Positions 4,930 through 27,032 of a stretch of DNA of 60,042 bases are shown here, in pieces (the stretch's first letter is position 1; every line of letters begins with the position of its first letter). Below the pieces are notes generated by a model. The model searched no databases, was not told where the DNA came from, and saw only the letters and a program-made list of their open reading frames with translations. The stretch covers positions 1-60,042 of the IMG/VR virus record IMGVR_UViG_3300000301_000017, one strand, 5' to 3'. The translations under genes were made by a program, and so were the position numbers. Origin of the DNA: a virus.

Positions 4930-5005
4930 ATATCTTTCCTACTCTCAATTAAGTTGCATTTTCAGAAAGTCGCTTCATTATGGAAGCTGTTACACAAAAC
5001 TGGGT

Positions 5006-5368
5006 CTATTCTTTAAGTCCAAGACTTTGAATGAAGTCTCGGACTATTTTTTTGCTTTTATCATCCAACTGCATATAGTTAACGATGATCTTCTTGATAA
5101 AATCATCATCTGATTGAATTACTTGTCCAATATAGGTCCCAAGTTCTGTCGCTGGGGGAAGCTTTAGGAACATTTCTCCTTCTCCTGTGCGTAACCACTT
5201 TTCGTTGACATTGAATTCTCTGCAAATAGCAGAAATATGAATGTCTTTTAGCTCCCTCTGACCTGTTTCAAACATAGCCAATGTAGATGCACCAACGTTA
5301 ATTTTTGAGCTAAATTCTCGTTGGCTTAATTTCAACGCTGAACGCAATTTCTTTAGTCTTTCGTTCAT
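5006..5368 (-). CDS. XRE-family HTH repressor (CI-like), paralogue 2, next to the divergent early promoter
   Basis: The HTH reads LRSALKLSQREFSSKINVGASTLAMFE. It shares NEKWLRTGEGEM and NYMQLDDKSKKIVRDF with the neighbouring gene. Confidence 0.8.
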   Translation of the reverse strand: MNERLKKLRSALKLSQREFSSKINVGASTLAMFETGQRELKDIHISAICREFNVNEKWLRTGEGEMFLKLPPATELGTYIGQVIQSDDDFIKKIIVNYMQLDDKSKKIVRDFIQSLGLKE

Positions 5369-5410
5369 GTGATAACCACCTCCTGTAGTTTCAGTATATC
5401 ACGCCGCCGC

Positions 5411-5468
5411 TCACTATGCAAACTTTTTTTAGATTATTCTTGACTTTTTGCATGCATAGTGATAATAT
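5411..5468 (+). promoter_or_regulatory. Early rightward promoter with operator inverted repeat
   Basis: TTGACT (5440..5445), a 17-nt spacer and TAATAT (5463..5468). The perfect 10-nt inverted repeat TCACTATGCA (5411..5420) / TGCATAGTGA (5453..5462) overlaps the spacer. A third TCACTA-like half-site lies near 5476..5485. Confidence 0.7.
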
Positions 5469-5521
5469 AAAATTGCTTAGTGAGCAAAATAAGTAACACT
5501 AAGTTATTTGGAAAAGGGGGG

Positions 5522-5689
5522 ATGAGGTTGCTCACAGAAACGCAGATGTCGGATGTGCTGGAAATTGCACATTTGCTTGAAAAGGTAGATCAAAAGTATC
5601 TACCGATGATCGCGACCGGTGTTTTTATGCTGCTGGCACGTGACCAGGTAGATAAAGAAAAAGGAGCTTCCGAAGTAGCTCCTAAGTAA
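5522..5689 (+). CDS. First early gene, small protein of unknown function
   Basis: A GGGGGG RBS precedes ATG 5522. It sits in a Cro-like position but has no clear HTH. Confidence 0.45.
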   Translation: MRLLTETQMSDVLEIAHLLEKVDQKYLPMIATGVFMLLARDQVDKEKGASEVAPK

Positions 5690-5784
5690 TGGTTATGAAT
5701 GGGCATAGAAACCCTAAACAGGCTAAAGAAAAATTTTATGCTGCTCTTGATGAACTGATTCAAGAAAAGGAGGTGAGAGCATGA
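5689..5784 (+). other. 31-codon ORF that looks like a truncated tail of the C-type RHH genes
   Basis: It ends ...ELIQEKEVRA with the same 21-nt junction gaaaaggaggtgagagcATGA as 6340..6360. Confidence 0.3.
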
Positions 5785-5921
5785 CCCGTGAACAAACGAC
5801 GATCCGCTTACCTGTTGAGCTCAAAGAAAAACTACAGCAAGAAGCCAACGTGAAAGGAAAATCCTATAACAATTTGGTTGAAATTATACTTTACAGTTGG
5901 GTCAGGAATTTTCTAAGATGA
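5781..5921 (+). CDS. RHH-like small protein, type A copy 1 (MTREQTTIRLP...)
   Basis: A beta-strand motif TTIRLP is followed by two predicted helices. It is ATGA-coupled to the upstream ORF and has paralogues at 6600 and 8481. Confidence 0.6.
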   Translation: MTREQTTIRLPVELKEKLQQEANVKGKSYNNLVEIILYSWVRNFLR

Positions 5922-6078
5922 TAGGCCCATTTTCCCGTTCGTAATCGGCGACCAGTTTCTTCAGTGTTCGTTCAATCTCTTTATTAGTTGACCGATCATT
6001 TTCCTTGGCAATATAGGACACCTTATTAAGCAATGTCTGGTCGATGCGTAGTGTATAGCGTGGTAAATCTGATGGCAT
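5902..6078 (-). CDS. Arc/Mnt-like RHH repressor, type B copy 1
   Basis: RYTLRIDQTLLNKVSYIAKENDRSTNKEIE matches the Arc pattern (f.lR.p..l...A...gRS.N.EI). It overlaps the A1 3' end convergently by 20 nt. Confidence 0.7.
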   Translation of the reverse strand: MPSDLPRYTLRIDQTLLNKVSYIAKENDRSTNKEIERTLKKLVADYERENGPIILENS

Positions 6079-6146
6079 ACGAGAATCCTCCTTTTGTCGT
6101 CACTTTATCGTCAGTATAGCGCAAAAAGAAAATTTTGAAAAGAATA

Positions 6147-6175
6147 TTGACATCACTTTTTCGTCACCGTATAAT
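6147..6175 (+). promoter_or_regulatory. Consensus sigma-70 promoter of cassette 1
   Basis: TTGACA, a 17-nt spacer and TATAAT. Repeated (t)cgtcac / gtgacgc motifs lie around it. Confidence 0.7.
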
Positions 6176-6198
6176 AATAAACGAGAGGTGACGCAATA

Positions 6199-6360
6199 GT
6201 GACGCAAAATGTAGTAAGATCAGGACTTAGACTCAGTCAGGCACTTAACCACGACTTAACAGAAATTGCGAAGGAGATTGGAATGAGGAAAAATCAGCTG
6301 ATAATTAAGATCCTCTGGGACTGGGTACAGGAGCAGAAGGAAAAGGAGGTGAGAGCATGA
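6199..6360 (+). CDS. RHH-like small protein, type C copy 1 (GTG start)
   Basis: RSGLRLSQALNHDLTEIAKEIGMRKNQLIIKILWDWVQEQKEKE. It shares a 28-nt identical stretch with copy 2. Confidence 0.55.
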   Translation: MTQNVVRSGLRLSQALNHDLTEIAKEIGMRKNQLIIKILWDWVQEQKEKEVRA

Positions 6361-6566
6361 ATGTGGAAGTTCTAAAAAACTTCTCGCTTAACGCCGAGAC
6401 AGGGGAGATCAAGATAAATGGAACTCCGTATAAAAATATAACCTACCTTTCCATGGTGATGAAGGATGGAAAGGTAGGCTTGGAGTTTCAAGATATGCGG
6501 TTTTACGCAAGCCATGAAGCAGACGGGTATTTTTTCTCATGGTTACCCAATGAAGTACCGCATTAA
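6357..6566 (+). CDS. 69-aa payload protein of cassette 1, unknown function
   Basis: It is ATGA-coupled to the C1 gene. There is weak resemblance (G.I.ING...G...LE) to 7397..7666. Confidence 0.5.
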   Translation: MNVEVLKNFSLNAETGEIKINGTPYKNITYLSMVMKDGKVGLEFQDMRFYASHEADGYFFSWLPNEVPH

Positions 6567-6599
6567 GGCATTTGCGATAGAAGAAGAGGGGTGAAAAAT

Positions 6600-6743
6600 A
6601 TGACCCGCGAACAAACGACGATCCGCTTACCACTGGACCTGAAAGAACAGATTCAAAAGCAAGCGGACCTTATGGGAATTACTTTGCACGACTTAATTTT
6701 GTTTATTCTCTGGGAAGACTTTCTACATACTTTTCCAAAATAA
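6600..6743 (+). CDS. RHH-like small protein, type A copy 2
   Basis: MTREQTTIRLPLDLKEQIQKQA. The first 32 nt match copy 1 except for one base. Confidence 0.6.
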   Translation: MTREQTTIRLPLDLKEQIQKQADLMGITLHDLILFILWEDFLHTFPK

Positions 6744-6873
6744 ACTCAATTTCTTTTGCTGTAGAGCGCTTGTTTTTTTCCGCTTCCTTCTTGATTATTT
6801 CAAGAAGCTCGGAATTTACACGCATCGTAAACCGTGTCTGATCTTCTCTAGTGAATGGGTCATTGCTTTTCAT
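6703..6873 (-). CDS. Arc/Mnt-like RHH repressor, type B copy 2
   Basis: RFTMRVNSELLEIIKKEAEKNKRSTAKEIE. It overlaps A2 convergently by 41 nt. Confidence 0.65.
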   Translation of the reverse strand: MKSNDPFTREDQTRFTMRVNSELLEIIKKEAEKNKRSTAKEIEFILEKYVESLPRE

Positions 6874-6931
6874 TTCTAGTCCCCCTTAGTGTCATTATGA
6901 CACAATGACGAAAAAAAGTAAAGACACCTTA

Positions 6932-6960
6932 TTGACACCAAATAGATGACGTGCTATTAT
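6932..6960 (+). promoter_or_regulatory. Consensus sigma-70 promoter of cassette 2
   Basis: TTGACA, a 17-nt spacer and TATTAT. The palindrome GTGTCATTATGACAC lies just upstream. Confidence 0.65.
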
Positions 6961-6987
6961 GGTAGCAAGGAAGGTGGTGTCAATAAT

Positions 6988-7149
6988 ATGACAAAAGACA
7001 CGGAAAGATTTACGTTACGAATGCCAAAGCGCCTTAAAAAACAGCTTGAAGCATGTAGTGTTCAAATGGGCATATCCCTCAATTCTCTGATGGTACAGCT
7101 GTTGTGGAGATGGGTACAGGAGCAGAAGGAAAAGGAGGCGAGAACATGA
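6988..7149 (+). CDS. RHH-like small protein, type C copy 2
   Basis: RFTLRMPKRLKKQLEACSVQMGISLNSLMVQLLWRWVQEQKEKE. A GGTGG RBS lies before ATG 6988. Confidence 0.6.
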   Translation: MTKDTERFTLRMPKRLKKQLEACSVQMGISLNSLMVQLLWRWVQEQKEKEART

Positions 7150-7328
7150 ACTTAGAAGAAAAGGCAAAAGACAAGATGAAGGAGTTTGAAGAAGCTGCCT
7201 CGCAGCTTCCCATTTTGTCCAAGAACTTCACGGTAGTCAACATTTTGCTGGCAGCGCAAGAGCTGTTTGCGCAAGAAGAATATGAAACCGTGATTGATCT
7301 CTGTGATGCAATGCTTAAGCATTTGTAA
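7146..7328 (+). CDS. 60-aa payload protein of cassette 2, unknown, predicted helical
   Basis: It is ATGA-coupled to C2 and has a clean ORF. Confidence 0.45.
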   Translation: MNLEEKAKDKMKEFEEAASQLPILSKNFTVVNILLAAQELFAQEEYETVIDLCDAMLKHL

Positions 7329-7396
7329 GCAAAATGCCGAAACGCCCCGCGGGGCGTCCGCCGGAGACAGCCTCCCGGCGCTGACGAGGCGGGCTA

Positions 7397-7666
7397 ATGG
7401 AAGGAGATGATGACATGTCAGATCATCAGGAAATGGGAGCGCGTATGGAGCTCAGTGGAGATGGAAACGTTGCAACGCTGATCATCAACGGTGTAGACCT
7501 TTCGAACTATGTTTCTGAAGTCACGTACCACAAAAAGGCTGGGGATTTAGCAACGCTGGAGATCGGCTTCAGTTATTTGAAGAGCGTGACGATCCGCGAC
7601 ATTGTGATTCCAAGCGTCCCTCCGGAGGTGGAAGCTGCCTTGAAAAACGAAAAGGCAGACTGCTGA
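7397..7666 (+). CDS. Small protein of unknown function
   Basis: The ORF has an RBS-like GGAAGGAG and distant similarity to 6357..6566. Confidence 0.45.
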   Translation: MEGDDDMSDHQEMGARMELSGDGNVATLIINGVDLSNYVSEVTYHKKAGDLATLEIGFSYLKSVTIRDIVIPSVPPEVEAALKNEKADC

Positions 7667-7700
7667 GGACAGTCTGCCGTAAAAGAAAGGAGAAAGCAAA

Positions 7701-7937
7701 ATGCGTATGCGTACATTGCCGCAGGCAATTGAAGAAATCAAAGCGAAAGATCCAGGCACATGCCTTACGCTGCGGGCTCTGCGCCGGCTCGTTTCTGAGC
7801 GACGCATTCCTGTTGCTTGGATGACGGCCAGGAAGCCGCTGATCGACCTAGACAAGCTGGAGACGTACCTTTATGAAATGCAACCCGAAGGAGCTCCAGC
7901 TGTTGCGGGTATTCGCCCCATACCGGAAAGGATTTGA
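7701..7937 (+). CDS. Excisionase/MerR-like HTH DNA-binding protein
   Basis: TLPQAIEEIKAKDPGTCLTLRALRRLVSERRIPV resembles Xis-type winged HTH proteins. It has an AAGGAG RBS. Confidence 0.5.
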   Translation: MRMRTLPQAIEEIKAKDPGTCLTLRALRRLVSERRIPVAWMTARKPLIDLDKLETYLYEMQPEGAPAVAGIRPIPERI

Positions 7938-7951
7938 AAGGAGAAGATATC

Positions 7952-8131
7952 ATGCTTGAAACCACCATTTACGCCGTGTTGATCGGCGCCGTCGCGGCGG
8001 GGACCATCGCCGCTGAAAAGAGATCCCGTCATCTGCGTGAGCAGCGCGCGGCAGACAAAGAAGCATACCGCATGCGCGTCCAGCAGAACCGCGCTGAGCT
8101 TCGCAAAGCCCTGCTGCAGGGTAGCCTGTGA
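7952..8131 (+). CDS. Small single-pass membrane protein
   Basis: A hydrophobic N-terminus is followed by a basic helical tail. A paralogue-like ORF lies at 9070..9234. Confidence 0.4.
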   Translation: MLETTIYAVLIGAVAAGTIAAEKRSRHLREQRAADKEAYRMRVQQNRAELRKALLQGSL

Positions 8132-8142
8132 GGTGGGACATC

Positions 8143-8484
8143 ATGTTTACAAAAGAAGAACTCGAAGAGATTGCGAAGGCGGACGCTGAGATCGACGCGA
8201 TGGAAGATACCGTAACGCCTGAAAGCCTTGCAATCTCTCGAGAACTTGATAAGGTGGCGCATAAGCAGGCAGTAAGCGCAGGCAGATTAAAAAGCCTTAC
8301 ACCGGAGGAGCGAGCTGAACACCGGAAGCTCCTCCATCGAGAATACATGAGGGACTACAATCATAGACCCTATGTAATGGAAAGGATAAAGGCCTACAAT
8401 AGCCGACCAGAAGTACGAGAAAAGCGCATTGCATATCTACGCGAGTGGCGGGCAAGAAAAAAACGGCAGGAGGAATTCCAATGA
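8143..8484 (+). CDS. Hypothetical protein
   Basis: The ORF has a GAGGTGG RBS and no recognisable motif. Confidence 0.4.
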   Translation: MFTKEELEEIAKADAEIDAMEDTVTPESLAISRELDKVAHKQAVSAGRLKSLTPEERAEHRKLLHREYMRDYNHRPYVMERIKAYNSRPEVREKRIAYLREWRARKKRQEEFQ

Positions 8485-8621
8485 ATCGCGAACAAACAAC
8501 AATCAGAATTCCTGTGAAACTCAAAGAGACCATTAAGATAGAAGCGAAAAAAAGAGGATTTTCATTCAACGCTTTGATTCTGATGATCTTGAACGAGGAA
8601 CGAAACCATCATCAAACGTAA
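8481..8621 (+). CDS. RHH-like small protein, type A copy 3
   Basis: MNREQTTIRIPVKLKETIKIEAKKRGFSFNALIL. It is ATGA-coupled to the upstream gene. Confidence 0.6.
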   Translation: MNREQTTIRIPVKLKETIKIEAKKRGFSFNALILMILNEERNHHQT

Positions 8622-8787
8622 TTGGTCCATGTTTTCCTTCCCATTCGCTTATATGGGACAAGATAAGCTGTTCAATTTCTTTGTTTGCCGATCTTCCATT
8701 ACGATCAGCAATGTATTTTAGCTTGTCCATTGTCTCAGAAGGAATTCTGAGCGCATACTGCGGATGCTTATGAACGCCTTGTGGCAT
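8566..8787 (-). CDS. Arc/Mnt-like RHH repressor, type B copy 3
   Basis: QYALRIPSETMDKLKYIADRNGRSANKEIE. It overlaps A3 convergently by 56 nt. Confidence 0.7.
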   Translation of the reverse strand: MPQGVHKHPQYALRIPSETMDKLKYIADRNGRSANKEIEQLILSHISEWEGKHGPITFDDGFVPRSRSSESKR

Positions 8788-8851
8788 ATTGACACCTCCT
8801 TGGCACTTTTATGATTTTATAATAACCGCAAAAATAAAAAACGAAAAGATA

Positions 8852-8880
8852 TTGACATCACAATGACGGCCACTTATAAT
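8852..8880 (+). promoter_or_regulatory. Consensus sigma-70 promoter of cassette 3
   Basis: TTGACA, a 17-nt spacer and TATAAT, in the same context (atattgacatcac) as cassette 1. Confidence 0.7.
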
Positions 8881-8923
8881 ATAAGTGTCAAGTGGACATC
8901 CACTACGTGCTGGAGGTGATCAT

Positions 8924-9076
8924 GTGCAACGGTCGCGAGTAGGACTCCGCATACCTTACGATCTCAATACCTATTTGATTTTACGATCGGAGAAACAAGG
9001 AGTATCAAAGAACGCCCTGATCCTGCAGATCCTGTGGGAATGGGTAGAGAATCAGAAGGAGGAACCAAAATGTTAA
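8924..9076 (+). CDS. RHH-like small protein, type C copy 3 (GTG start)
   Basis: VGLRIPYDLNTYLILRSEKQGVSKNALILQILWEWVENQKE. A GGAGGTG RBS precedes it. Confidence 0.55.
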   Translation: MQRSRVGLRIPYDLNTYLILRSEKQGVSKNALILQILWEWVENQKEEPKC

Positions 9077-9234
9077 GCATTATCTTGATTATCACCGGTG
9101 GCGCGTGCATCGCGACGGCGGCCATCATGTTGACGGCAACGGCCAATCATAACCATCGTGTGCGTGCACAGCGGGCCAAACAAATCGCAGCTGCACGCGC
9201 AGAGATGCGCAAGCAGCTGAAAGGAGGAGAATAA
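9070..9234 (+). CDS. 54-aa single-pass membrane protein, payload of cassette 3
   Basis: MLSIILIITGGACIATAAIMLTA is followed by a basic tail. Its start overlaps the C3 stop. Confidence 0.45.
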   Translation: MLSIILIITGGACIATAAIMLTATANHNHRVRAQRAKQIAAARAEMRKQLKGGE

Positions 9235-9237
9235 TTG

Positions 9238-9600
9238 ATGGATAAAGAAAAGGCCGCCCCCGCGCCGAAGCGCGAAAGCGGCAAAGAAAACTTATCTTCT
9301 ATTAGTATCGCACAAAGCACCCATTTTGTCAAGGTATCAGATGTGCTGCATGCGTTGAAAGAAGACGACGAAACCCCGACCGAGTGGTCCAAAGGATACA
9401 ACGCTGCTCTCGGTGATATGAAGACGGTCATTAGAGGCCTAAAAAAATACCGAGCGGAGGAAGATGATGTATGGAGCCGGCTGCGGCGTGACTGTGAGGA
9501 TCCAAATAGCGGACTAAGCGCTTGTGAGTACAACGTGCCAGGACCAAATGGAGGACGGTATCTGATAAGCATTATGTATCGAGAGACAAGCAGAAGATAA
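9238..9600 (+). CDS. Hypothetical protein
   Basis: The ORF has a GGAGGAG RBS. Confidence 0.4.
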   Translation: MDKEKAAPAPKRESGKENLSSISIAQSTHFVKVSDVLHALKEDDETPTEWSKGYNAALGDMKTVIRGLKKYRAEEDDVWSRLRRDCEDPNSGLSACEYNVPGPNGGRYLISIMYRETSRR

Positions 9601-9612
9601 GGAGGATCCGAA

Positions 9613-9825
9613 ATGATTGTAGCAGGATATGAAGGAATTGGTCCAGAGTCAGGAAAGCATGTAGACGCAGATGACGCGCTGAACTATGCGATGATCCGCT
9701 GCGGGATCACTTGGGACGCACCGATCGATGGATTCAAACCGGACGTTCGCGATGAGTTCGAGCAGGCGTTTATGGAGTGGTTTTACTCTGGTAACTGGGT
9801 GCCTGTAATCACAAAAGAAGCGTGA
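9613..9825 (+). CDS. Hypothetical protein
   Basis: The ORF has an AAGGAGGA RBS. Confidence 0.4.
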   Translation: MIVAGYEGIGPESGKHVDADDALNYAMIRCGITWDAPIDGFKPDVRDEFEQAFMEWFYSGNWVPVITKEA

Positions 9826-9835
9826 GGAGAAAACT

Positions 9836-10342
9836 ATGGATCATTTATATGAACTGACCGCTGACTATATGCGGCTGCTGGATGCAATCGAGGCGGGGGA
9901 GATCCCCGAAGAAGCGATTGAAGATACGCTGGCAGGCATTGAAGGTGAAATTGACGAGAAGATTGACGCGATTGCCTGCATGGTCAAGGAATTGACTGGC
10001 GAGGCGGAAAGCATCTCGGAAGAAGAACGAAGCCTTGCAGAGCGCCGACGCGCGAAGGAACGGAAGGCCGCACGCCTGAAGGATTATATCCGCGACCAGA
10101 TGGCGCTGACGAATAGGAAAAAGATCGAAACGGCGCGCAATGTTGTGCGCTTAGGAGGATTAACCAAGCGCGTTGAGATCACAGATCTAGAAGCGCTCAA
10201 AAGTTATAAGGAAGCATGGAAGCCGTACACCTACAAGGTTACGGACGTAGACAAGGTCGCACTTAGGGCCTTGCTGCAAGAAGGGAAACAAATCCCTGGT
10301 GCGAAATTATCAGAAGGGCAGCGCACCTTGACGATCAAGTGA
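9836..10342 (+). CDS. Siphovirus Gp157-like protein
   Basis: LYELTADYMRLLDAIEAGEIPEEAIEDTL..IEGE...KIDAIA is the typical Gp157-family N-terminus. It lies upstream of a recombinase. Confidence 0.6.
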   Translation: MDHLYELTADYMRLLDAIEAGEIPEEAIEDTLAGIEGEIDEKIDAIACMVKELTGEAESISEEERSLAERRRAKERKAARLKDYIRDQMALTNRKKIETARNVVRLGGLTKRVEITDLEALKSYKEAWKPYTYKVTDVDKVALRALLQEGKQIPGAKLSEGQRTLTIK

Positions 10343-22624: not shown

Positions 22625-22822
22625 GTGGCACTCTATCAATCAGCCAAAGAAGCACAGGAAGCGGCAGATCTATTGAAACAAAAGCTGATCGCAATGCCTA
22701 AAAGGGGATGTCAGGCGCAGCGTCAGCGTCTGGAGGATATGTGCCGCGACGCGCAGCTGCAGGCAAATGTGCTGTACCTGATGGCGCGCGGGAAGCCTCC
22801 GGACGGGGGCGGTGAGACATAG
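22625..22822 (+). CDS. Hypothetical small protein (GTG start)
   Basis: The ORF has a GGAGGTGG RBS. Confidence 0.4.
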   Translation: MALYQSAKEAQEAADLLKQKLIAMPKRGCQAQRQRLEDMCRDAQLQANVLYLMARGKPPDGGGET

Positions 22823-23325
22823 TGGAAAACTTTGATGAGCGGTATGCGAAGCTCGCAGAGAAGGAAAAGCGGTTTATCGATTATTGGCTTGAAACCGGCA
22901 ATGCAACGGAAGCGGCCCGCAGGGCGGGATACACAGCAAAAACAGAATCCACGATGCGCTCCATTGGAAGCAACAACCTGACCAAGCTTGCGAAGTACAT
23001 CCAGCCGCTGCTCGAAAAGCGCGCAAACGAGCGCGTCGCTTCGGCGGACGAAGTACTGGAAACATTGACTCGCGTTTTACGCAGGAAGGAAGAAGAAACA
23101 GTCGTTGTAACCTGCAGGACACGGAAAACGTATCTCGACGAGACTGGCCGCCGTGTGACAGAAGAAAAAGAAGAGCCGGTTATCGTAAAGACAGACACGC
23201 CGGTACGAGAGGTAAACAAGGCGGCGGAATTGCTAGGGAAGCGATACAATCTCTTTACGGACAAGCTGCAAGTGCAGGAAATCACACCGGTGGTGATCGA
23301 TGGTGCAGATGACCTCAAAGACTGA
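22822..23325 (+). CDS. terS: Terminase small subunit
   Basis: RFIDYWLETGNATEAARRAGYTAKT is the typical terS HTH. It lies immediately upstream of terL. Confidence 0.85.
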   Translation: MENFDERYAKLAEKEKRFIDYWLETGNATEAARRAGYTAKTESTMRSIGSNNLTKLAKYIQPLLEKRANERVASADEVLETLTRVLRRKEEETVVVTCRTRKTYLDETGRRVTEEKEEPVIVKTDTPVREVNKAAELLGKRYNLFTDKLQVQEITPVVIDGADDLKD

Positions 23326-23709
23326 GCGCGTCTATTTGCCGGAAGTAGTCGGCAAAGGGTACGGCGCGTTTTGGCGTTGCCAAAAGCGCTATCGTGTCGT
23401 GAAAGGTTCCCGCGCCAGCAAGAAGAGCAAGACGACCGCTTTGAACATAATCTACCGCATGATGCAGTACCCGCAGTCCAACACGCTCGTCGTGCGCAAG
23501 GTTTTTCGAACGCTCAAGGACAGCTGCTACACAGAGCTCAAGTGGGCCATACATCGACTGCACGTTGAGGCGTGGTGGCAGTGCAAAGAATCGCCGCTCG
23601 AAATGACGTATCTTCCGACCGGCCAGAAAATCTACTTCCGCGGGCTTGATGATCCGCTGAAGATCACGTCCATTACGGTGGACGTCGGTTATCTGTGCTG
23701 GGCGTGGAT
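23300..23709 (+). CDS. terL: Terminase large subunit, exon 1 (ATPase N-terminal part with Walker A-like GSRASKKSKT)
   Basis: The reading frame runs into a stop 6 codons after ...LCWAW. Joining at 23709/24497 restores the Walker B motif WIEEAYE. Confidence 0.8.
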
Positions 23710-24496
23710 TAACTTTGGTTCACGTTAAATTCCTCTAATTTCTGGGACACCCTGAAAAGGGCAATCAGAAGCGAAGCAGCAAAGGACGTTGTCTTATGGA
23801 GATTTGGAAGCCGATAAAAGGTTTTGAAGGATTTTATCAAGTCAGCAACAAGGGAAATGTAAAAAGTTTAGGTGGATGGTGTGGAAGTTCATTACATAAA
23901 GAACACACACTTTCCAAAAGCATTACTCGTGATGGATATGAGAAAGTAAGACTGAACTGGGATGGAAAAGATGTTACTGTAAAAGTGCATCGCCTTGTTG
24001 CAGAAGCATTTATTGAAAATCCTCTCCAAAAGAACACCGTAAACCACATTGACGGAAACAAACGAAACAACTGTGTCGAAAATCTAGAATGGTGCGACAG
24101 AAGCGAACAAATGCTTCACGCATATAAGTTGGGGCTCAAGAAGGCGGCAAAAGGGACTCGCAATCGTAACGCCAAATTAACAGATGAAGATGTAAAAGAA
24201 ATCAGAAGGGTGTATGTAAAATACAGTCGAGAATTTGGTACAGTGGCCCTTGGAAAGAAATACGGAGTAACAAACCGTGTGATAGATAATGTGGTTCTAG
24301 GAAAGTCTTATTGCTGAACGTTCAACGACTATCGAAAGCAAGGAACGGTTATCACGCTTTTTGTAAGTAGAGTAGGGCGCAAGGGCGCTCGAAACGGGGA
24401 AAGCCACCAGTGGCTAAGATATAGTCTGAACTGCATGGTAACATGCAGAGAAAAGTCTCATAGGGAAACCGAACCGGACTTTTCGTAACACAATTG
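23710..24496 (+). mobile_element. Group I intron 1 in terL, carrying an HNH homing endonuclease ORF
   Basis: P1 forms between exon GUGGAU (splice-site U.G) and intron GUUCAC (23718..23723). The terminal G is at 24496 in caattg. The core contains agatatagtctgaac, a group-I-like sequence. Confidence 0.75.
23796..24317 (+). CDS. HNH homing endonuclease (NUMOD4 plus HNH_3 type)
   Basis: EIWKPIKGFEGFYQVSNKGNV (NUMOD4) and VNHIDGNKRNNCVENLEW (HNH). Confidence 0.85.
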   Translation: MEIWKPIKGFEGFYQVSNKGNVKSLGGWCGSSLHKEHTLSKSITRDGYEKVRLNWDGKDVTVKVHRLVAEAFIENPLQKNTVNHIDGNKRNNCVENLEWCDRSEQMLHAYKLGLKKAAKGTRNRNAKLTDEDVKEIRRVYVKYSREFGTVALGKKYGVTNRVIDNVVLGKSYC

Positions 24497-24615
24497 AGAA
24501 GAAGCTTATGAAATCGGCGACGAATCGGATTTTGACATGCTCGACGAGTCTATCCGTGGCGCGCTTCCGCCAGAGACAGGACTATTTAAACAGGTGACGC
24601 TCACATTTAATCCGT
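24497..24615 (+). CDS. terL: Terminase large subunit, exon 2
   Basis: It encodes (I)EEAYEIGDESDFDMLDESIRGALPPETGLFKQVTLTFNP(W). Confidence 0.75.
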
Positions 24616-24916
24616 AGATTTTGCGGCAATATCGAGGAATCGATATTGAAAACTCCTTTAATTCATGGAAACCCCTAACGTAAAGACGAGGGCAACCATG
24701 ATCCAAGTCAAAAGCAATGAGCATTTTGAAAGGTGCAACGACTATCGAAAGCAGAAAGGGCGCTGATGAGGCGCCTTTATTTTGTAAGTAGAGTAAGGGC
24801 AAGTGCCCTGAAATGGGGAGGGCCCAAAATGGGCTGTGATATAGTCTGAACTGCTGTGAAAGCAGCAGCAGCTTAAATAGCGGTGCGGTTGTAGCGAAAC
24901 CGTACGAACAGAATTG
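24616..24916 (+). mobile_element. Group I intron 2 in terL (no ORF)
   Basis: P1 forms between exon CCGU and intron GCGG (24623..24626). The terminal G is at 24916 in gaattg. The 3' half is homologous to intron 1 (caacgactatcgaaagca, ttgtaagtagagta, gatatagtctgaactgc). Confidence 0.7.
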
Positions 24917-25701
24917 GGAATGAGCATCACTGGATTAAAAAGCGATTTTTTGATAAAGAAAGCCCCGACGTCCTCGCAATGACGACGAACTACACGTGCA
25001 ACGAGTGGCTCGATGAGGCGGACCTGCGGCTCTTTGAGACTATGAAGACGCAAAACCCGCGGCGTTACCAGGTCGCCGGCCTGGGCGAGTGGGGGATAGT
25101 TGATGGCCTAGTCTATGAAGACTGGGAAGAAAAAGCCTTTTCCGTCGATGAGATTCGCGGAAAAAAGGGCGTGCACGCAGCGTTTGGCCTCGACTTCGGC
25201 TTTACAAACGACCCAGCTGCGCTATTCTGCGGGCTTGTGGAACTCGCTACACATACCATCTGGGTGTTTGATGAGATGTACGCAAAGGGCCTTACAAACC
25301 AGCAGCTTGCAAAAAAGATCAAGGAGATGGGCTACGCCAAAGAACACATCATCGCTGATTGCGCTGAGGAAAAAAGCATCAAGGAACTGCAGGAGGCCGG
25401 GCTGCGGCGCGTGGAACCGAGCCAGAAGGGCAAGGACTCCGTTATGGCTGGCGTGCAGTACGTCCAGAACTTTCACATCATTGTGCATCCGCGGTGCGTG
25501 AACTTCCTGACGGAGCTATCCGTCTATACTTGGGAAAAAGACAAGAAGACGGGAAAATCCATCAATAAGCCTGTAGACATGAACAACCACTTGATGGACG
25601 CCATGCGATACGGAATTCAATCTGTGCGCAAGTTGTCAAGTCCACCGTCGTCGCAGGCCGTCAAAGGTAATCATCAAGATAATTACTGGGGGAGGGTGTG
25701 A
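24917..25701 (+). CDS. terL: Terminase large subunit, exon 3 (nuclease domain)
   Basis: (W)NEHHWIKKRFF...GLDFGFTNDPAA...ADCAEEKSI...NNHLMDAMRY. The three exons sum to 1314 nt, a multiple of 3. Confidence 0.8.
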
Positions 25702-25703
25702 AG

Positions 25704-27032
25704 ATGCCCAAAGAAATCGGCCGCGTAGGCCAGAAGCGATTTGCGGGGGTATTCTACGAGGAATTCCTCCCCGAGCTTTCCGGCGTACGTGGAATCGAAA
25801 CGTACAAGGAAATGGCAAACAACGATGAGATCATCTATGCGATGCTCTACGCCATCGAGATGATGCTCAGGCAGACGGAATTCCGTGTGGATCCGGCCGG
25901 CCCGAAGGACATCGATCGAGAGGCGGCGGATTTCATAGACAGCTGTCTCAACGACATGGAAATGACTTGGCAGGACACGTTGTCGGAGATTCTTTCGTTC
26001 ATTGTCTACGGTTGGAGTTATCACGAAATCGTCTATAAGCGTCGGCGCGGCCGCAGCCGGGATCCACGTTATGCAAGCAAGTATTCTGATGGCCTGATTG
26101 GCTGGCGGAAGCTGCCGATCCGCTCCCAGGACACGCTCGTGCGATGGGAGTACGACGCAAAAACTGATGAACTGATCGGGCTTACACAGGCGCCTCCGCC
26201 AAACTATACGGAGATATTCGTGCCGCTTGAAAAGGCGATGCACTTTCGCACGAAATCAAGCAAGGAAAATCCAGAGGGGCGAAGCATCTTGCGCGGGGCG
26301 TACCGCGCGTGGTACTTCAAAAAGCGTATTCAGGAAATTGAGGGCATCGGCATTGAGAGAGACCTTGCTGGTTTTCCGGTGCTTCATGCGCCGGAGGGAT
26401 CGGATATATGGGGAAGTGACGAAGAGTCTAGAATGACCCTTGCAAATGCGCAGGAAATCGTAACCTCCATCCGACGCGACACGCGAGAGGGACTTGTCCT
26501 GCCTGACGGATGGACGCTGGAGCTGCTGGCATCCGGCGGCCGGCGGAATTTTGATACAAACGCTGTCATCGAGCGCTGGGACAAGCGTATCGCGATGACG
26601 ACCCTTTCTGACTTTATTTTGCTAGGCCAGCAATCGCAGGGAAGCTTCGCCCTTTCGAGCGACAAAACAAAACTTTTCTCGACGGCACTTGGAACATATC
26701 TGGACATCATCTGCGACGTGTTCAATACGCAGGGAATCCCAAGACTTATCGAGCTAAATTCCGAGCACTTCCACGGTATCACGGATTATCCCGTGCTTGC
26801 GCACGGGGACGTGGAAAATGTAAATCTCGAGGAACTGGGATCCTTTGTGTCGCAGACGGTTGGAAGCGGCGCCCTGATGCCGGACGAGAGTCTGGATGCC
26901 TACCTGCGTCGGGCTGCATCTATGCCGGAACGCGTGGAGGACTACCCACTCGCGGAGCCTACCGCTGGCAATGGCGTGCCGGCAGCGCATCAAACGGCCG
27001 TGCAGAGCGCCGGAGAGAATCTGGAGGAATAA
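25704..27032 (+). CDS. Portal protein
   Basis: Called from size and position directly after terL and before the Mu-F/gp7-like gene. Confidence 0.75.
   Translation: MPKEIGRVGQKRFAGVFYEEFLPELSGVRGIETYKEMANNDEIIYAMLYAIEMMLRQTEFRVDPAGPKDIDREAADFIDSCLNDMEMTWQDTLSEILSFIVYGWSYHEIVYKRRRGRSRDPRYASKYSDGLIGWRKLPIRSQDTLVRWEYDAKTDELIGLTQAPPPNYTEIFVPLEKAMHFRTKSSKENPEGRSILRGAYRAWYFKKRIQEIEGIGIERDLAGFPVLHAPEGSDIWGSDEESRMTLANAQEIVTSIRRDTREGLVLPDGWTLELLASGGRRNFDTNAVIERWDKRIAMTTLSDFILLGQQSQGSFALSSDKTKLFSTALGTYLDIICDVFNTQGIPRLIELNSEHFHGITDYPVLAHGDVENVNLEELGSFVSQTVGSGALMPDESLDAYLRRAASMPERVEDYPLAEPTAGNGVPAAHQTAVQSAGENLEE

Follow-up and report, generated by a model that had tools for sequence, protein, structure and literature searches.

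The gene for the large terminase subunit (terL) of IMG/VR virus record IMGVR_UViG_3300000301_000017 very probably contains two group I introns of the phage IA type, both of them mobile and each acquired independently of the other. The window analysed here is the whole of that record, a complete virus genome of 60,042 bp with direct terminal repeats and a completeness estimate of 100%. The exon structure of the gene, the ribozyme fold of both insertions (Rfam matches and covariation), the family of the nuclease encoded in the first insertion, and the presence/absence polymorphism at the exact junctions were all observed directly.

terL is one gene with three exons on the plus strand. Its frame opens with an ATG at 23300, reads to ...LCWAWINFGSR and meets a stop codon at 23726-23728. 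Exon 1 (23300-23709, + strand, 410 nt; Terminase_3 match) includes the Walker A region and runs to ...LCWAW plus two nucleotides of an Ile codon. Exon 2 (24497-24615, + strand) is a 119-nt micro-exon that codes for (I)EEAYEIGDESDFDMLDESIRGALPPETGLFKQVTLTFNP, with the translation running (I)EEAYEIGDESDFDML...TLTFNP, and closes on the first nucleotide of a Trp codon. Exon 3 (24917-25701, + strand, 785 nt; Terminase_3C match) supplies the remainder of the ATPase together with the RNase-H-like nuclease domain. Joining 23709 to 24497 and 24615 to 24917 yields 410+119+785 = 1314 nt, a stop-free frame of 437 codons (437 aa) that reads ...CWAWIEEAYE... and ...TFNPWNEHHW... across the junctions. The original prediction, made from the sequence alone, had proposed that the frame stops shortly after ...LCWAW, that an exon piece follows and the nuclease half resumes at 24917, and that these two joins restore WIEEAYE and FNPWNEHHW in a frame of 1314 nt; every one of these elements lies where it was placed, and the proposed exon structure is right to the nucleotide.

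The joined product behaves as a complete terminase. It matches Terminase_3 (PF04466) with 194 bits (E 2.8e-57) over profile positions 2-201 of 201 and Terminase_3C (PF17288) with 110.5 bits (E 1.3e-31), and it aligns with the terminase nuclease domain of PDB 2WBN (2.2e-14) and with Sf6 gp2 (4IDH, 1.2e-11), where W-I-EE falls on W-V-EE and T-FNP on S-FNP. A full-length ATPase and RNase-H-like nuclease are found in one polypeptide only once the three exons are joined. Both introns sit in highly conserved ATPase codons: the first within the Ile codon immediately ahead of the Walker-B EE (site 1), the second in the Trp codon of the FNP^WN motif (site 2). The position of Walker B is assigned from the alignment with Sf6 gp2 and from the structure of that protein. 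The introns are AT-richer than the exons (GC 0.416 and 0.455 against 0.549 and 0.522; 0.395 for the nuclease gene), which is consistent with horizontal acquisition.

Related phages carry the gene without interruption at exactly these two positions, in agreement with the proposed junctions. In a tblastn search, 1197 of 50,697 phage records matched at least 80% of the spliced TerL in one unbroken piece. The nearest intron-less allele, MT837863 (67% amino acid identity), reads LCWCWIEEAYEI (CWIEEAYEI) and LTFNPWNEKHW through the two junctions, and the best IMG/VR relatives (67-71% identity) are uninterrupted and colinear across both in 80 of 80 cases. The intron-less DNA of these 80 alleles reads GTGGAT^TGAAGAAGC at site 1 and AACCCGT^GGAATGAAC at site 2. 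Among related phages no frameshifted or truly split terminase was found at either site; where the gene is interrupted, it holds a homologous intron. No relative above 71% amino acid identity to the window terL was found in IMG/VR or among GenBank phages, so that the series of intron presence and absence described below is drawn from a sister lineage and not from the window phage's own species.

The two insertions share the marks of group I introns. Both upstream exons end in U (23709 and 24615), both introns end in AATTG (24492-24496 and 24912-24916, with G24496 and G24916 as the final nucleotides), and the block GATATAGTCTGAAC occurs in both (24418-24431 and 24838-24851). P3, P4, P5, P6, P7, J8/7, P8, the terminal omega-G and the P1 U-G pair are intact in each, and the cores are about 60% identical with the same IA-type architecture. 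Subgroup IA was provisionally assigned from P7.1/P7.2 under the scheme of Michel and Westhof. A terminal G is present in 11 of 12 completely sampled unique site-2 introns and in 12 of 12 site-1 introns with set boundaries. The original prediction had named the exon-final U with its P1 U.G pair (GCGUGGAU/GUUCACGU and CCGU/GCGG), the aattG ends, the shared 3' blocks, and an endonuclease gene of the NUMOD4/HNH type in intron 1 with none in intron 2, and all of these were recovered. Its expectation of a match to the Rfam group I model (RF00028) was borne out for intron 2, which scores above the cut-off; the two halves of intron 1 also hit the model, with scores below it.

Intron 2 (24616-24916, + strand, 301 nt) is free of open reading frames (ORFs), with none of at least 40 aa on its sense strand, and possesses a complete P1-P9 core with P2, P7.1, P7.2 and P9.2; its omega-G is 24916. 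It matches RF00028 with 64.4 bits (E 4.7e-14 for the whole window; cut-off 50) over 24606-24868, model positions 1-253 being covered completely. The model's P1 puts the splice-site U at 24615, paired with G24623, within a guide region (24618-24626, + strand) in which GCGG (24623-24626) pairs with exon CCGU (24612-24615); this P1 is invariant across 7 homologues. By sequence, AUUUU (24618-24622) could in addition pair with GGAAU (24917-24921), the first five nucleotides of exon 3, as a putative P10. The remaining helices were assigned as P2 (24628-24647), P3 (24653-24658 with 24815-24820), P4/P5 (24663-24701), P6/P6a (24702-24734), P8 (24822-24834), J8/7-P7 (24838-24851), P9 (24851-24868) and P9.2 (24883-24905), together with P7.1 and P7.2. 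Intron 2 is 76% identical to L086, an intron at the same site in another phage.

Intron 1 (23710-24496, + strand, 787 nt) is likewise IA-type with P7.1/P7.2 and omega-G 24496, and lacks P2. RF00028 gives its 3' half (24270-24448) 26.1 bits (E 3e-4) and its 5' part 13.4 bits, against a gathering score of 50. The shortfall is attributed to a 522-nt ORF in the P6a loop. The effect of such an ORF was calibrated on a single site-2 core, which scores 97.3 bits in the ORF-less contig L092 and 29.5 bits in contig L088, where it carries a 609-nt ORF. Site-1 introns without an ORF reach 86.1 bits (L151, 285 nt) and 86.6 bits (L152, 300 nt); the core of intron 1 shares 70-73% identity with the site-1 family and 70-71% with these two. 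The guide sequence GUUCACGU (23718-23725, + strand) forms P1 with exon GCGUGGAU (23702-23709) through the wobble pair U23709-G23718, and all 8 pairs of this helix form in 9 of 9 homologues. In the ORF-bearing site-1 introns the ORF takes the place of the P6a terminal loop, and the 3' strand of P6a in intron 1 (24312-24316) coincides with the final codons of the ORF, UGC UGA.

In both the window and L152, RF00028 sets P1 on a hairpin inside exon 1, ACGUCCAUUAC...GUGCUGGGCGU (23664-23709). This exon-internal P1 was rejected for the site-1 introns in favour of the exon-guide helix, which shows covariation and terminates at the junction. Splice sites called automatically from alignments to RF00028 would be misplaced in this family of introns.

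Covariation supports the fold of both families. For site 1, nine introns were aligned with their ORFs removed in silico under a hand-written structure that includes the P3/P7 pseudoknot. In this alignment 98.8% of 584 cells fall in standard pairs and 23 of 66 pairs are compensatory; none of 500 shuffles reached any of five measures, and sliding the 3' partners by 1-3 columns left 35-41% paired. The alignment of seven site-2 introns gave 98.1% of cells paired and 34 compensatory pairs out of 59, with 0/500 shuffles and 39-45% in the slid controls; because the structures were partly derived from the tested sequences, the share of paired cells is inflated in both families, while the counts of compensatory pairs are not. 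P7 is invariant and hence uninformative in this test. Pairs were counted on these separate alignments because a joint MAFFT alignment placed site-1 rows off by at least one column in P3, P8 and P1, and the joint alignment served RNAalifold only. Run unguided on both families together, RNAalifold recovered P4, P5, P6, P6a, P7, P7.2, P8, P9 and P9.2, with 31 of 50 pairs compensatory.

At site 1 the covariation extends into the exon. Exons ending ...GGAU go with guides beginning GUUC..., and exons ending ...GGCU with GGUC..., the latter combination occurring in two different exon backgrounds; exon AUG/GCG is matched by guide CAU/CGU. At single positions, a change of A to C in the exon is met by U to G in the guide, and U to C by A to G. 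This exon-guide covariation in P1 fixes the 5' splice site of intron 1.

The gene inside intron 1 (23796-24317, + strand, 173 aa) encodes an I-HmuI-like HNH homing endonuclease and lies in the P6a terminal loop. It has its own start codon and a Shine-Dalgarno-like AAAGGA about 9 nt upstream. Its product matches NUMOD4 (54 bits, 1.9e-14; cut-off 23.4) and HNH_3 (33.4 bits, 3.4e-8; cut-off 24.8) in Pfam, the HNH endonuclease family phrog_59 (1.5e-51) and I-HmuI itself (PDB 1U3E, E 6.2e-17); it is full length, and the catalytic motif VHRLV...NH.DGNK.NN is kept. The closest comparisons are a site-1 ORF in contig L110 (65% identical) and the HNH protein of the site-2 intron in Bacillus phage Silence (35%). 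I-HmuI is a strand-specific nicking enzyme, and by analogy the window enzyme probably nicks intron-less terL near the Walker-B codons. Conservation of the intron-less site 1 in the 80 alleles and the presence/absence polymorphism lend this indirect support. An intein was considered and rejected, as a stop closes the exon-1 frame after 17 nt of intron 1 and the ORF is equipped with a start codon and Shine-Dalgarno-like sequence of its own.

Further site-1 introns were sought by an HNH protein search and by a pattern made from the exon end and the guide sequence. The pattern scan gave 60 stretches, 59 of them new (the other being that of contig L097), and 17 of the 59 lie within terL homologues; the remaining matches, outside terL homologues, were set aside as chance matches to a degenerate pattern. 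In 12 contigs the boundaries of a site-1 intron could be set exactly at W[I/L]^EEAYE, with a final G in each. A more distant terL is found in the 72-kb contig L142 (IMG/VR 3300045988_162904; 30-36% amino acid identity over the matched pieces), where site 1 holds an insertion with the same guide-sequence pattern, which is not counted among the 12 with set boundaries. Around residue 274 this gene shows a further gap, of about 950 nt, which may be a third terL intron site.

At site 2 the pattern TTYAAYCCGT|ARAWTTTGCGGC retrieved 24 contigs from IMG/VR in which an intron interrupts FNP^W, in size classes of 916, 302 and 519 nt. The 916-nt class encodes a 202-aa GIY-YIG ORF (Pfam 2.1e-9), the 302-nt class equals the 916-nt form minus the ORF between two GGAATGAAA repeats, and the 519-nt class retains a GIY-YIG remnant with an internal deletion. 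Intron 2 of the window is nearest to this last class (76% identity), with the remnant gone too. A GIY-YIG ORF, an HNH ORF, an ORF remnant and no ORF at all are found among site-2 introns. The direct comparison of L088 (IMG/VR 3300045988_081759) with L092 (3300045988_004661) shows the P6-loop segment between the GGAATGAAA direct repeats to be missing in L092. These sequences suggest loss of the nuclease gene through a microhomology deletion, with the ribozyme left intact.

The sister terL lineage contains several combinations of the two introns. L097 carries both, L176 only the site-1 intron and L092 only the site-2 intron, with exons 90-97% identical at the nucleotide level. These mixed alleles show that the two introns move separately. 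The break points fall at the predicted junctions: L097 positions 3792 and 4625 lie next to each other in L092, and the 302-nt intron of L092 is absent from L176. The intron boundaries are thereby confirmed at the DNA level in homologues.

A duplication of intron 1 as the source of intron 2 was rejected. Each intron is nearer to same-site introns of other phages than to its partner in this gene, and on this sequence comparison the two are independent invaders.

Two observations concern the state of these elements in relatives. In L097 (3793-4624) and L176 (IMG/VR 3300045988_013668 and _050285), the site-1 HNH ORF is stopped by a TAA after 146 aa, where 173-177 aa are found elsewhere; as read from the sequence, this is a decaying homing-endonuclease gene in an apparently intact ribozyme. 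In L109 (IMG/VR 3300045988_077623), the exception to the terminal-G rule at site 2, an otherwise typical 302-nt intron ends in ...CAAATA in place of ...CAAATG, so that the G required in the second step of splicing is an A. Either the base was misread in sequencing, or the intron is dead and terL is inactivated by it.

Splicing is proposed to proceed as follows, whether autocatalytically or with the help of factors. terL would be transcribed as a single pre-mRNA in which each intron folds into its P3-P9 core, and P1, with its U-G wobble, would arise from pairing of the internal guide sequence with the last nucleotides of the upstream exon. Exogenous guanosine bound in P7 would attack after U23709 or U24615, and the freed 3'-OH of the exon would then attack behind the terminal G of the intron (24496 or 24916). 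Once its exons are ligated, the mRNA would code for the 437-aa TerL, with predicted junctions GUGGAU|AGAAGAAG and AAUCCGU|GGAAUGAG. The HNH enzyme most likely nicks or cuts the intron-less terL of co-infecting relatives and so drives the homing of intron 1, and intron 2 appears to have lost its nuclease gene.

That the intron pair around the 119-nt micro-exon acts as a regulatory device, by splicing-gated timing of TerL (for example at induction) or by skipping of exon 2, appears unlikely. Exon skipping has reportedly been seen in Twort orf142. Skipping here, from the 5' splice site of intron 1 to the 3' splice site of intron 2, would join exons 1 and 3 into 1195 nt with a frameshift, giving a truncated product with Walker A only, and the difference between the two guide sequences argues against frequent skipping of this kind.

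Several features weigh against two introns that both splice well. Intron 1 in its present form scores below the Rfam gathering score (26.1 against 50 bits); it lacks P2; its P6a measures only 5 bp against 9-11 bp in relatives; and in the family alignment 2 of 9 aligned positions in P9 and 2 of 7 in P9.2 are unpaired, although the window has an 8-bp P9.2 of its own (GAAAAGUC/GACUUUUC). In addition, splicing of certain phage group I introns is confined to living cells (PMC11878797), so strict self-splicing of the window introns is not assured. The same structural features of intron 1 would fit an explanation in which the introns are group I by descent but efficient splicing has been lost in one, intron 1 being the likeliest, with terL a pseudogene in a decaying prophage or a helper-dependent phage. 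Decay of this kind is visible in relatives, in the stop-truncated HNH ORF of L097 and the terminal A of L109. Against this stand the intact catalytic-core elements of both introns, exons that are highly conserved and contain neither stops nor frameshifts, the 100% completeness of the genome and its terminal repeats, and a full-length HNH ORF with an intact catalytic motif. ORF-less L151, moreover, also lacks P2 and yet scores 86 bits. Loss of efficient splicing is accordingly judged very improbable.

An explanation without RNA splicing would have the terminase pieces translated separately, as polypeptides of their own, or linked through frameshifting or bypassing by the ribosome, with the intervening DNA serving as a free-standing HNH gene and non-coding spacers. 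Free-standing HNH genes adjoining terminase genes are common in phages, and split annotations exist in the form of fragment-length PHROGs families named 'terminase large subunit' (phrog_3717, 5653, 6672, 8711). Exon 2, however, has no in-frame start codon or ribosome-binding site and begins and ends inside codons, and related alleles lack the insertions precisely at these codon-internal junctions. The supposed spacers are structured ribozymes with Rfam and covariation support, and no precedent is known for ribosomal bypass gaps of 787 and 301 nt. This explanation is almost certainly wrong. It is scarcely conceivable that the interruption is an assembly or chimera artefact, even though the record is a metagenome-derived viral genome, since the two-intron architecture recurs in the independent contig L097 and the introns are also found singly at their respective sites, in at least 12 and at least 24 other contigs from different samples and in the cultured Bacillus phage Silence.

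With two mobile group I introns as the preferred reading, consequences for annotation follow. Gene callers will report the terL of this phage as two or three fragments and an 'HNH endonuclease', where the correct product is a single 437-aa TerL. Fragment-sized PHROGs families named 'terminase large subunit' were matched by the spliced TerL (phrog_8711, 89 positions; phrog_6672, 145; phrog_5653, 199; phrog_3717, 277), and phrog_22023, labelled 'unknown function', covers residues 146-282 of the spliced TerL. Such families may stem from terL genes whose intron-split pieces were annotated as ORFs in their own right, and the existence of the fragment-sized ones suggests that misannotation of terL is common.

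The interrupted gene lies in a packaging module. It is preceded by terS (22822-23325; Terminase_2 match, 1e-26) and followed by the portal gene (25698-27032; Portal_Mu match, 4.3e-37), whose start at 25698 is overlapped by the terL stop codon (25699-25701). Elsewhere in the window, a type II hammerhead ribozyme (RF02276) was matched at 7335-7398 on the + strand (40.8 bits, cut-off 37, E 6.5e-5 window-wide). It nearly fills the 68-nt gap (7329-7396) between ORFs at 7104-7328 and 7397-7666. The match is single copy, no further hammerhead being found in positions 5000-10000 of the window.

Among known systems, the encoded enzyme most resembles I-HmuI of the SPO1 DNA-polymerase intron. The two share their length class (173 and 174 aa), and both have a NUMOD4-type beta-hairpin region at the N-terminus, the HNH motif VHRLVA...NH.DGNK.NN and a helix-turn-helix-like tail at the C-terminus, whereas the target of the window enzyme must differ (the terL Walker-B region, not DNA polymerase). 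The introns themselves resemble the IA-type phage introns within RF00028, such as those of T4 td, nrdB and sunY, the SPO1 and Bastille DNA polymerases and the Twort/K-like Staphylococcus phages. They have in common the P1 U-G pair, the P3-P9 core, the J8/7-P7 block GAUAUAGUCU, the terminal G, the P7.1/P7.2 extension and the placement of a nuclease ORF in a peripheral loop, and the core of intron 2 shows 72-77% DNA similarity to Intron_gpI-annotated introns of Staphylococcus phages. They differ in host gene and phage, and window intron 1 lacks P2.

The closest parallel at a single site is Bacillus phage Silence (KT001912), which is annotated with a joined coding sequence. Its terL intron sits at the identical site 2 (FNP^W, after CCGU), with a near-identical P1 and guide (AACCCGU|AAAAUUUGCGGC against AAUCCGU|AGAUUUUGCGGC in the window) and a homologous core. 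Unlike the 301-nt, ORF-less intron 2, the Silence intron is 800 nt long, encodes an HNH ORF and lacks P7.1; its core is about 52% identical to that of window intron 2, and Silence has no intron at site 1.

Intron-split terminase genes are already known. In the Bacillus myophage Moonbeam, terL contains two introns with homing-endonuclease genes (PMC4299906). For SIOphi TerL, splicing was demonstrated both in vitro and in vivo, and one variant skips an exon (PMC11878797). PMC4299906 cites Mikkonen & Alatossava 1995 for a terminase intron in phage LL-H. Splicing has thus been demonstrated for published TerL genes with two and with three introns (PMC11878797, PMC4299906). Moonbeam, SIOphi/phiAGATE and LL-H resemble the present case at the level of the gene, with one to three group I introns in terL that mostly carry homing-endonuclease ORFs. 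The phages concerned, large virulent Herelleviridae or, in one case, a Lactobacillus phage, have a TerL of another family (phrog_675, PMC11878797), whereas the window phage has a 60-kb genome and a Terminase_3 (PBSX-type) TerL. The window terL therefore adds one more case and no new principle. It is unusual only in its host phage and in the clean series of intron and nuclease states at two ATPase-motif sites. This series runs from empty sites through introns with an intact HNH or GIY-YIG nuclease gene and introns with a truncated or remnant ORF to ORF-less introns, and it offers good material on the turnover of introns and nuclease genes in the homing cycle and on intron-mediated competition between co-infecting gut phages.

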